Shown in pieces: positions 8,254 to 14,834 of a DNA stretch of 16,712 nucleotides. Numbering within the stretch: position 1 is the stretch's first letter; every line of letters begins with the position of its first letter. The stretch is from Escherichia coli (GTDB taxonomy: Bacteria; Pseudomonadota; Gammaproteobacteria; Enterobacterales; Enterobacteriaceae), in NCBI RefSeq assembly GCF_003334315.1, contig NZ_QOWR01000074.1, one strand, 5' to 3'. A program made the translations under genes and the position numbers. The notes under the pieces are model-generated. The model worked only from the letters and a program-made list of their open reading frames with translations. It did no database searches and was not told where the DNA came from.

Positions 8254-10230
8254 ATGTCTGACGACATGTCTATGGGTTTGCCTTCGTCAGCGGGCGAACA
8301 CGGTGTACTACGCTCCATGCAGGAGGTTGCAATGAGCTCCCAGGAAGCCAGCAAGATGCTGCGTACTTACAATATTGCCTGGTGGGGCAATAACTACTAT
8401 GACGTTAACGAGCTGGGCCACATTAGCGTGTGCCCGGACCCGGACGTCCCGGAAGCTCGCGTCGATCTCGCGCAGTTAGTGAAAACTCGTGAAGCACAGG
8501 GCCAGCGTCTGCCTGCACTGTTCTGTTTCCCACAGATCCTGCAGCACCGTTTGCGTTCCATTAACGCCGCGTTCAAACGTGCGAGGGAATCCTACGGCTA
8601 TAACGGCGATTACTTCCTTGTTTATCCGATCAAAGTTAACCAGCACCGCCGCGTGATTGAGTCCCTGATTCATTCGGGCGAACCGCTGGGTCTGGAAGCC
8701 GGTTCCAAAGCCGAGTTGATGGCAGTACTGGCACATGCTGGCATGACCCGTAGCGTCATCGTCTGCAACGGTTATAAAGACCGCGAATATATCCGCCTGG
8801 CATTAATTGGCGAGAAGATGGGGCACAAGGTCTATCTGGTCATTGAGAAGATGTCAGAAATCGCCATTGTGCTGGATGAAGCAGAACGTCTGAATGTCGT
8901 TCCTCGTCTGGGCGTGCGTGCACGTCTGGCTTCGCAGGGTTCGGGTAAATGGCAGTCCTCCGGCGGGGAAAAATCGAAGTTCGGCCTGGCTGCGACTCAG
9001 GTACTGCAACTGGTTGAAACCCTGCGTGAAGCCGGGCGTCTCGACAGCCTGCAACTACTGCACTTCCACCTCGGTTCGCAGATGGCGAATATTCGCGATA
9101 TCGCGACAGGCGTTCGTGAATCCGCGCGTTTCTATGTGGAACTGCACAAGCTGGGCGTCAATATTCAGTGCTTCGACGTCGGCGGCGGTCTGGGCGTGGA
9201 TTATGAAGGTACTCGTTCGCAGTCCGACTGTTCGGTGAACTACGGCCTCAATGAATACGCCAACAACATTATCTGGGCGATTGGCGATGCGTGTGAAGAA
9301 AACGGTCTGCCGCATCCGACGGTAATCACCGAATCGGGTCGTGCGGTGACTGCGCATCACACCGTGCTGGTGTCTAATATCATCGGCGTGGAACGTAACG
9401 AATACACGGTGCCGACCGCGCCTGCAGAAGATGCGCCGCGCGCGCTGCAAAGCATGTGGGAAACCTGGCAGGAGATGCACGAACCGGGAACTCGCCGTTC
9501 TCTGCGTGAATGGTTACACGACAGTCAGATGGATCTGCACGACATTCATATCGGCTACTCTTCCGGCATCTTTAGCCTGCAAGAACGTGCATGGGCTGAG
9601 CAGCTTTATTTGAGCATGTGCCATGAAGTGCAAAAGCAGCTGGATCCGCAAAACCGTGCTCATCGTCCGATTATCGACGAGCTGCAGGAACGTATGGCGG
9701 ACAAAATGTACGTCAACTTCTCGCTGTTCCAGTCGATGCCGGACGCATGGGGGATCGACCAGTTGTTCCCGGTTCTGCCGCTGGAAGGGCTGGATCAAGT
9801 GCCGGAACGTCGCGCTGTGCTGCTGGATATTACCTGTGACTCTGACGGTGCTATCGACCACTATATTGATGGTGACGGTATTGCCACGACAATGCCAATG
9901 CCGGAGTACGATCCAGAGAATCCGCCGATGCTCGGTTTCTTTATGGTCGGCGCATATCAGGAGATCCTCGGCAACATGCACAACCTGTTCGGTGATACCG
10001 AAGCGGTTGACGTGTTCGTCTTCCCTGACGGTAGCGTAGAAGTAGAACTGTCTGACGAAGGCGATACCGTGGCGGACATGCTGCAATATGTACAGCTCGA
10101 TCCGAAAACGCTGTTAACCCAGTTCCGCGATCAAGTGAAGAAAACCGATCTTGATGCTGAACTGCAACAACAGTTCCTTGAAGAGTTCGAGGCAGGTTTG
10201 TACGGTTATACTTATCTTGAAGATGAGTAA
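8254..10230 (+). CDS. speA: Biosynthetic arginine decarboxylase (PLP-dependent), 658 aa
   Basis: Translation [49 protein letters not shown]... The track ORF starts at a TTG four codons upstream; the ATG at 8254 is taken as the start. Confidence 0.96.
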
Positions 10231-10299
10231 GTCCTGTGTTACTTGAATCCGCTTAATTTAGCGGTGATAATCCGCCACAATTTATTGTGACAAATCCAA

Positions 10300-10339
10300 C
10301 CCTTCCTCGTCGGGCCTAACGACGCGGAAGGGTTTTTTT
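10300..10339 (+). terminator. Intrinsic terminator / attenuator between speA and speB
   Basis: Inverted repeat cccttcctcgtcg (10300-10312) / cgacgcggaaggg (10320-10332), one mismatch, followed by a run of seven Ts at 10333-10339. It starts 70 bp after the speA stop and ends about 30 bp before the speB start. Confidence 0.7.
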
Positions 10340-10367
10340 ATATCGACTTTGTAATAGGAGTCCATCC

Positions 10368-11288
10368 ATGAGCACCTTAGGTCATCAATACGATAACTCA
10401 CTGGTTTCCAATGCCTTTGGTTTTTTACGCCTGCCGATGAACTTCCAGCCGTATGACAGCGATGCAGACTGGGTGATTACTGGCGTGCCGTTCGATATGG
10501 CCACTTCTGGTCGTGCGGGTGGTCGCCACGGTCCGGCAGCGATCCGTCAGGTTTCGACGAATCTGGCCTGGGAACACAACCGCTTCCCGTGGAATTTCGA
10601 CATGCGTGAGCGTCTGAACGTCGTGGACTGCGGCGATCTGGTATATGCCTTTGGCGATGCCCGTGAGATGAGCGAAAAGCTGCAGGCGCACGCCGAGAAG
10701 CTGCTGGCTGCCGGTAAGCGTATGCTCTCTTTCGGTGGTGACCACTTTGTTACGCTGCCGCTGCTGCGTGCTCATGCGAAGCATTTCGGCAAAATGGCGC
10801 TGGTACACTTTGACGCCCACACCGATACCTATGCGAACGGTTGTGAATTTGACCACGGCACTATGTTCTATACCGCGCCGAAAGAAGGTCTGATCGACCC
10901 GAATCATTCCGTGCAGATTGGTATTCGTACCGAGTTTGATAAAGACAACGGCTTTACCGTGCTGGACGCCTGCCAGGTGAACGATCGCAGCGTGGATGAC
11001 GTTATCGCCCAAGTGAAACAGATTGTGGGTGATATGCCGGTTTACCTGACTTTTGATATCGACTGCCTGGATCCTGCTTTTGCACCAGGCACCGGTACGC
11101 CAGTGATTGGCGGCCTGACCTCCGATCGCGCTATTAAACTGGTACGCGGCCTGAAAGATCTCAACATTGTTGGGATGGACGTAGTGGAAGTGGCTCCGGC
11201 ATACGATCAGTCGGAAATCACTGCTCTGGCAGCGGCAACGCTGGCGCTGGAAATGCTGTATATTCAGGCGGCGAAAAAGGGCGAGTAA
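10368..11288 (+). CDS. speB: Agmatinase (agmatine ureohydrolase, arginase family), 306 aa
   Basis: Translation [60 protein letters not shown]... includes the arginase-family Mn-binding motifs GGDH and DAHTD. Confidence 0.96.
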
Positions 11289-11299
11289 GCACCAGATGC

Positions 11300-11485
<186 letters not shown>

Positions 11486-14535: not shown

Positions 14536-14566
14536 AAAAAGGTCGCTTCGGCGACCTTTTTTATTA
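14536..14566 (+). terminator. Intrinsic terminator of tktA
   Basis: Stem aggtcgc (14540-14546) / gcgacct (14551-14557) with loop ttcg, followed by ttttttatt. An A-run precedes it, so it could function bidirectionally. It lies 15 bp after the tktA stop. Confidence 0.8.
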
Positions 14567-14834
14567 CCTTGATATGTCCGTTTGCGGACAAGCAATAGAT
14601 AAGGCGTGTTGTAGATCACAAATATTTATATGCAATAAATATCAATTATGTAATATGCATCACGATATGCGTATTGACATTTGTTGTTATATCTATAACT
14701 CAATGTTATATAAGAAATTAATAATTCACTGTTTTCAAAACACCGGTTTCCCTGCTCAATTGCTTTCATTAAACCGCACGAGTATTTTATTTTTACCGCC
14801 GGACGGTACCCTAAAAATAAAATAAGGATAATTT

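Follow-up and report, generated by a model that had tools for sequence, protein, structure and literature searches.

The hairpin and T-run located between speA and speB of Escherichia coli are a real site of RNA 3'-end formation that is already present in published tables, and they very probably constitute a Rho-independent terminator in the speB leader which acts as a leader attenuator of speB. This assignment draws on the structure itself, on RNA 3' ends within the U-tract, on a transcription start site upstream of the stem, on transcripts that read through, and on conservation, all of which are observed in the sequences or documented in published data. The speB gene serves the last step of the arginine-to-putrescine route, and two promoters feed one strongly conserved terminator ahead of it. 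Therefore, the amount of SpeB made would depend on how often polymerase reads through a single element of 40 nt. This element is ordinary as a terminator, and both the terminator and the transcription units are already known from public data sets. The additions made here are a corrected position of the speB promoter, the observation that the element travels with speB, and its unusual conservation.

The window and its genes

The window (the whole stretch of 16,712 nucleotides that was analysed) is E. coli K-12-type DNA with galP, metK, speA, speB, loiP, and tktA. An 801-nt query round the site matched K-12 derivatives at 100% identity, and the matched region is annotated there with speA and speB. 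For conversion to the minus strand of MG1655, window position x becomes 3083797 + (10368 - x). The limits of speA were converted in this way from the MG1655 RefSeq annotation and those of speB are taken from annotation, both with a 100% match to K-12 strains. The features of the region are listed below.

8254-10230, plus strand: speA coding sequence, biosynthetic arginine decarboxylase; the stop codon ends at 10230
10243-10271, plus strand: speB promoter from a promoter scan, with -35 TTGAAT (10243-10248), a 17-nt spacer, and -10 GATAAT (10266-10271)
10279, plus strand: start site of the speB-only transcript, SMRT-Cappable-seq unit b2937, 3083886 reverse, as listed in PMC6131387, Supplementary Data 2
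10279-10367, plus strand: speB 5' leader of 89 nt, from the start site to the speB ATG, with the terminator inside
10298-10334, plus strand: speA-speB terminator hairpin, with arms 10298-10312 and 10320-10334, loop 10313-10319, and a U.C mismatch at 10307/10325
10333-10339, plus strand: T-run (U-tract) of seven T, read from the sequence, with a Term-seq 3' end at 10338 and a TRS terminus at 10333-10344
10356-10360, plus strand: speB Shine-Dalgarno AGGAG, read from the sequence, within a weak local hairpin (10345-10362) of the leader fold
10368-11288, plus strand: speB coding sequence, agmatinase

Several other structures occur in the window. The spacer between the convergent speB and loiP genes (11329-11471) contains REP-type palindromes resembling GCCGGATGCGGCGTGAACGCCTTATCCGAC. 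The classical tktA terminator, AAAAAGGTCGC TTCG GCGACCTTTTT, is found at 14536-14561, and downstream of tktA, at 14783-14824, lies an A+T-rich inverted repeat, TATTTTATTTTTA / TAAAAATAAAATA, whose 13-nt arms match perfectly and are 16 nt apart. At the other end of the operon, a Rho-dependent 3' end has been mapped 57 nt into speA (MG1655 3085854, window 8311), downstream of the small ORF yqgB (Adams et al., PMC7815308), and the terminator scan returned a hairpin with a T-rich tail upstream of yqgB at 8036-8055. Thus, speA appears to have premature-termination control of its own at that end.

Hairpin and T-run

As read from the sequence, the core of the hairpin consists of the 5' arm CCCTTCCTCGTCG (10300-10312), the 7-nt loop GGCCTAA (10313-10319), and the 3' arm CGACGCGGAAGGG (10320-10332). 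The core stem has 13 pairs with one T.C mismatch, 10307 opposite 10325. Pairing of AA at 10298-10299 with TT at 10333-10334 extends it to 15 pairs, and the arms are 93% complementary. The speB ATG at 10368 lies 28 nt beyond the last T of the run. The earlier note on this DNA had described a 13-bp stem with one mismatch and seven Ts ahead of speB, and had proposed a folding check of 10295-10345; the description is correct, and the predicted fold of that segment has a free energy of -24.4 kcal/mol (z = -6.1). Shuffles of the same segment averaged -10.8 ± 2.2 kcal/mol, with equal stability reached in 0 of 200. Both structural hallmarks of an intrinsic terminator, a stable G+C-rich stem-loop and an adjacent U-tract, are therefore present.

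An inverted-repeat survey of the 16.7-kb window (arms of at least 13 nt, complementarity of at least 85%) returned, besides this hairpin, three REP-type palindromes, one A+T-rich repeat, and one 13-nt repeat in speA (9981-10009). A simple consensus terminator scan missed the speA-speB hairpin because it allows no internal mismatch, and this omission is thus not evidence against the element.

Three other explanations of the palindrome were considered and rejected. Termination of antisense transcription is rejected since the minus strand of the region lacks a U-tract and pairs less well in most species, with a minus-strand hairpin of about -18 or -19 kcal/mol in most variants. Coding is rejected as well; the reading frame that runs through the hairpin and ends at a TGA overlapping the speB ATG opens just past a stop at 10288-10290 and contains no start codon, and variation of the T-run between 6 and 9 nt would shift the frame. 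A repeat or mobile element is discarded, given a single copy per genome in 5426 E. coli genomes.

RNA 3' ends at the site

In Term-seq data (Adams et al. 2021, PMC7815308, Supplementary file 1, sheet M63), an RNA 3' end falls on the sixth T of the run, at window 10338 or MG1655 3083827(-). This end is classed there as 'orphan' and is placed 30 nt upstream of the speB ORF in Supplementary file 3. It occurs in the minimal-medium sheet only and is absent from the two LB data sets of that study; the Rho scores given cover the LB data set, where 3083827(-) is unlisted (PMC7815308). Additionally, the TRS study of 2023 reports a terminus at 3083821-3083832, or window 10333-10344, with R = 0.85-1.0, R being 1 minus local read-through (PMC10687069). 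The same table gives R values of 0.93 for thrC and 0.77 for the thrL attenuator, and the value at the speA-speB site is comparable with those of such accepted terminators. The site is labelled there as an alternative primary terminus of speA within the transcription unit, and the same predicted fold is drawn (PMC10687069).

Taken together, in vivo 3' ends within the U-tract were obtained in two independent studies with two methods, in LB data of TRS and in minimal-medium data of Adams et al., which is what is expected of an intrinsic terminator. The earlier note had proposed that the hairpin terminates transcription and had named a T-run devoid of 3' ends as the observation that would speak against it; the published ends map exactly there. 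The site is absent from the supplements of Ettwiller 2016 and TERMITe 2025. A literature search on the E. coli speA/speB terminator, the speB leader, attenuator or promoter, RIL-seq, and ProQ returned nothing relevant, the original S1-mapping papers on speA and speB from the Boyle laboratory lying outside its scope. Most of its matches concerned Streptococcus SpeB or were word accidents.

The speB promoter and leader

The promoter and start site of speB are both situated upstream of the hairpin. Among the SMRT-Cappable-seq units listed, 3083886(-) is the sole start of a speB-alone transcript (Yan et al. 2018, PMC6131387). This start (10279) is 8 nt past GATAAT and 19 nt upstream of the stem, and the hairpin with its T-run occupies +20 to +61 of the speB leader, on a start site defined by one data set plus the conserved promoter motif. 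The same source lists speA-speB units starting at 3085928, 3085945, and 3085946, and a yqgB-speA-speB unit starting at 3086409 (PMC6131387). Full-length units of both kinds listed there, b2937 and b2938|b2937, cross the hairpin. No speA-only unit is found among those listed (PMC6131387), which fits substantial read-through. Of 5426 complete E. coli genomes, all 5426 have the leader (10279-10367) exactly once, and no annotated feature overlaps it.

The 28 nt between the T-run and speB contain the ribosome-binding site only. Since the promoter and start precede the hairpin, no speB message can be made from either promoter without read-through of it. Moreover, the position of the start upstream of the stem means that the hairpin acts on transcripts from speB's own promoter, and it is thus a leader terminator and not merely a divider between speA and speB. 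The earlier note was right in giving speB a promoter of its own, whereas its placement of that promoter in the short downstream spacer is not upheld, as start 10279 and GATAAT are both upstream of the hairpin. The read-through from speA that it envisaged agrees with the full-length speAB transcripts among the published units (PMC6131387), and such read-through may, as the note also allowed, be regulated.

With respect to attenuators, a terminator (10298-10334) lies between a start site (10279, from the listed units) and a start codon (10368), and terminated and read-through transcripts both exist in the published data consulted. A competing antiterminator structure or leader peptide was looked for and not found in the leader: besides the terminator, its fold holds only a weak hairpin round the ribosome-binding site, with no conserved alternative pairing, and the frame through the hairpin lacks a start codon. 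In view of the lack of a leader peptide, alternative pairing, Rfam family, and clear condition dependence, any regulation would act on the hairpin itself.

Distribution across Enterobacterales

Relatives were collected by a SpeB search with one genome per species, which yielded 80 Enterobacteriaceae loci. A hairpin followed by a run of 6-9 T is present just upstream of speB in all 80 species. In a wider sample of 85 hairpin-bearing sequences, an exact GATAAT occurs within 75 nt upstream in 80, and the distance from its end to the stem is 26-28 nt in 71 of those 80. The module of promoter, hairpin, and T-run is also present in an Erwinia-like genome, in Edwardsiella, and, despite a SpeB identity of only about 80%, in Pantoea, where the -10 hexamer is only about 12-14 nt from the stem. 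The element is absent from Morganella, Providencia, Sodalis, and Acerihabitans, the latter two having a speA-speB gap of 13 nt. Its lack in several Enterobacterales indicates that it is not essential for speAB function. Plesiomonas (locus L090, about 160-259) has an unrelated, non-homologous hairpin with T7 just ahead of the speB ribosome-binding site, which suggests independent evolution of a terminator before speB.

The upstream context varies. The distance to speA is 105-292 nt in some loci, with the extra space filled by REP-like palindromes; other loci carry insertions of 1.5-2 kb or have no speA within 3.5 kb. In Salmonella the module is present and the upstream gene is an unrelated hydrolase instead of speA, and in loci L009, L010, L041, and L082 the element is likewise next to speB with speA not adjacent. 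As the module stays next to speB whatever lies upstream, the element belongs to speB and not to speA. The variable speA-speB spacers of other genera contain, besides REP-like sequences, CCCTCTCCC...GGGAGAGGG palindromes.

A degenerate pattern of the hairpin was also matched against metagenomes. All 11 true hairpins recovered are directly upstream of speB. The remaining 109 of the 120 matches are unrelated coding DNA of G+C-rich organisms, mostly ABC-ATPase Walker A codons, and were set aside as pattern collision and not homology. In one frame, 10306-10332 of the hairpin spells 10 residues, and the pattern derived from it matched more than 100 Walker A sites (LVGPNGAGKT; loci L092-L211), which we regard as a coincidence.

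Three records of the survey deserve separate mention. In an Enterobacter MAG (L048), the hairpin is 22 nt after the speA stop, the speB promoter region is missing, and the gap is 105 nt, which may reflect either natural loss of the promoter or an error of assembly. A contig titled Chryseobacterium sp. 18061 (L075) carries an enterobacterial speA-speB locus with a SpeB 96% identical to that of E. coli, and an agmatinase labelled Vagococcus sp. WN89Y (P0007 / L091) is 88% identical, with the enterobacterial leader present. Both are probably contaminated or mislabelled assemblies.

Lipoprotein-gene polymorphism in E. coli

The K-12 arrangement, with speA next to the module, is found in 1871 of 5426 complete E. 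coli genomes. In 3555 of the 5426, including O157:H7 Sakai and not K-12, speA is separated from the speB promoter by a gene for a 243-residue lipoprotein. From window position 10291 on the two haplotypes do not differ, but upstream they diverge sharply (window 10231-10291; L001 5066-6000). Among sampled E. coli variants, differences are located outside the hairpin. The lipoprotein matched no Pfam family and no credible NCBIfam family. Its gene is present at the locus in some Escherichia, Citrobacter, Kluyvera, Klebsiella, and Enterobacter, and the lipoprotein-gene loci of other genera have one promoter variant in common, TTTTAAGGCGATAATTA, which looks as though gene and adjacent promoter moved together as a cassette.

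E. coli strains with the lipoprotein gene have a separate speA terminator right after the stop codon (L001 5082-5124), consisting of a 15-bp stem followed by UUUCUUUUU (-20.6 kcal/mol, z = -4.7). Consequently, a joint speA-speB transcript in those strains would require read-through of two terminators.

Constraint on the hairpin

Mean pairwise identities over the 80 species are as follows.

Hairpin: 0.93
speB promoter: 0.78
Spacer from the -10 hexamer to the stem: 0.64
Spacer from the T-run to the ATG: 0.59
speB nucleotides: 0.87
speB four-fold degenerate sites: 0.58

Hairpin and T-run together occur in only 23 distinct versions among the 85 sequences. Among 18 distinct sequences, pairing is kept in 99.2% of cells, and 9 of 14 pairs are without variation. 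Compensatory double changes (A-U to U-A and C-G to U-A) occur at two pairs, and G.U variants (U-A or C-G to U-G) at three. Such U-G changes pair only in the plus-strand RNA and thus indicate selection on that RNA. The plus-strand stability is -21.5 to -24.4 kcal/mol in all variants but one. Little or no variation is seen in the upper stem, in most of the loop, or at the U.C mismatch; the mismatch is kept everywhere (U.U in one species), and its repair would give a computed fold of -29.7 kcal/mol. At the same loci, the tktA terminator keeps its position, its loop varies widely, its stem also varies across genera, and it is replaced outright in several species. As the single comparison terminator, it calibrates the exceptionality of the speB hairpin only roughly.

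Proposed mechanism and alternative explanations

In the mechanism that we favour, RNA polymerase would reach the element after starting at the speA promoters or at the promoter of speB itself, which lies 20 nt upstream of the stem. Once the G+C-rich hairpin and the U-tract are transcribed, many transcripts would be released within the U-tract, and the polymerases that read through would produce speB mRNA. In K-12-type genomes, the element is the first canonical terminator after speA and would also end speA messages. It would thus have a dual job, as the end of the speA message and as a throttle on speB output from both promoters. The 3' ends are most plausibly formed by termination and not by trimming. 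We infer both the efficiency of termination at the hairpin and the limitation of SpeB synthesis by it.

Another explanation makes the attenuator effector-controlled, with a ligand (agmatine, putrescine, or spermidine) or an RNA-binding protein setting read-through into speB. It is possible, on the less likely side, and several observations recommend it. The sequence is conserved beyond the needs of pairing, with the upper stem, most of the loop, and the mismatch near-invariant; stability is held near -24 kcal/mol although mismatch repair would reach -29.7; the tktA comparison terminator is far more variable; and a terminator after a gene's own promoter is wasteful unless modulated. Furthermore, Szumanski and Boyle reportedly described in 1992 a response of speB to agmatine and cAMP. 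However, the leader has no conserved antiterminator pairing and no leader peptide, its flanks are poorly conserved, no Rfam match was found, guanidine riboswitch classes included, the 3' end is seen in LB as well as in minimal medium, and the comparison involves one terminator only. Conservation, the kept mismatch, and the capped stability do leave room for an effector. A more specific and rather doubtful version is that the hairpin is a sequence-specific regulatory RNA element of Enterobacterales, in which an effector recognising the invariant upper stem, loop, and U.C mismatch sets termination efficiency; an RNA that binds agmatine or a polyamine, or a dedicated RNA-binding protein, could fill this role. 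If true, the effector reading would subject putrescine synthesis to feedback control at the speB step and account for the response to agmatine that has been reported.

Stable hairpins block 3' exonucleases, and trimming of longer RNAs to such a hairpin can also yield a 3' end. The element might accordingly be a processing barrier, at which polymerase reads through and exonucleases trim the cleaved RNA to the hairpin, protecting speA mRNA. The full-length speAB transcripts among the units listed in PMC6131387 are compatible with this, but a U-tract of 6-9 is found in every relative, which a mere barrier does not need, and the 3' ends fall within the U-tract as intrinsic termination predicts. 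It is therefore an improbable explanation. Nor does an ordinary end-of-gene terminator of speA followed by a speB promoter, as pictured in the earlier note, seem at all likely. The hairpin with its U-tract is indeed the first after the speA stop in K-12-type genomes, and the TRS label is that of a speA terminus (PMC10687069). Against this, the hairpin is preceded both by the start site mapped in the listed units and by the conserved promoter, and the 28-nt downstream spacer holds the ribosome-binding site only. Moreover, the element stays by speB when speA is not adjacent (Salmonella and the four loci named above), and about two thirds of E. coli genomes have a separate speA terminator and an intervening lipoprotein gene. 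The least likely proposals are that the RNA of about 60 nt from the speB start to the U-tract is a trans-acting small RNA, or that the palindrome is a DNA operator; we give them very little credence. A promoter followed by a terminator with a U-tail does resemble a small-RNA gene, and the repeat is a near-perfect palindrome. However, the single-stranded 5' part is poorly conserved (identity 0.64) and shrinks to little or nothing in Pantoea, with its -10 about 12-14 nt from the stem; the literature search found no RIL-seq or other mention of a small RNA and no northern, Hfq, or ProQ data on a speB leader RNA of about 60 nt; and the G.U variants and conserved U-tract favour a one-strand RNA structure over an operator.

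The leader terminator thus remains the preferred explanation, and its significance depends on how read-through behaves. If read-through is modulated, the element would supply the missing mechanism for the reported agmatine and cAMP effects and would be a compact new cis-regulatory RNA in well-studied organisms. If it is constitutive, the element would be a clear example of a terminator fixing the speA:speB ratio.

Comparison with known systems

Guanidine riboswitches (ykkC, mini-ykkC, and ykkC-III) are also leader RNA structures upstream of arginase-family 'speB' genes, in other phyla. The association of ykkC-III with speB and its conserved ACGA were noted by Weinberg et al. 2010 (PMC2864571). 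The 3' arm of the speB hairpin contains ACGA as well, a resemblance to be read as a lead only. The speB element is, however, a single long hairpin and not an ACGR tetraloop pair or a pseudoknot. Rfam searches gave no match at the gathering score across the window and none at E <= 10 in 10200-10420, and the covariance models of ykkC, mini-ykkC, and ykkC-III accordingly do not recognise it.

The trp and thr leaders, and the 5' UTR 3' ends of Adams et al., share with speB a terminator between start site and start codon. In contrast to the trp and thr leaders, no leader peptide, antiterminator pairing, or known effector was found in the speB leader, and the likeness extends to membership of the general class only.

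The element resembles the intrinsic terminators of E. coli in having a G+C-rich stem-loop followed by a U-tract, with 3' ends there that are listed in Term-seq and TRS data. Unlike ordinary intrinsic terminators, it lies downstream of the promoter of the following gene, and in stem and loop it varies far less in sequence than the tktA terminator does.

The rplL-rpoB attenuator and T1 in rpsU-dnaG-rpoD are intercistronic partial terminators that set the ratios of operon genes. The speB element is similar to them as a partial terminator between co-transcribed genes. It differs in that the internal promoter of speB is upstream of the terminator whereas theirs are downstream, and speB's own transcripts are thus affected too.
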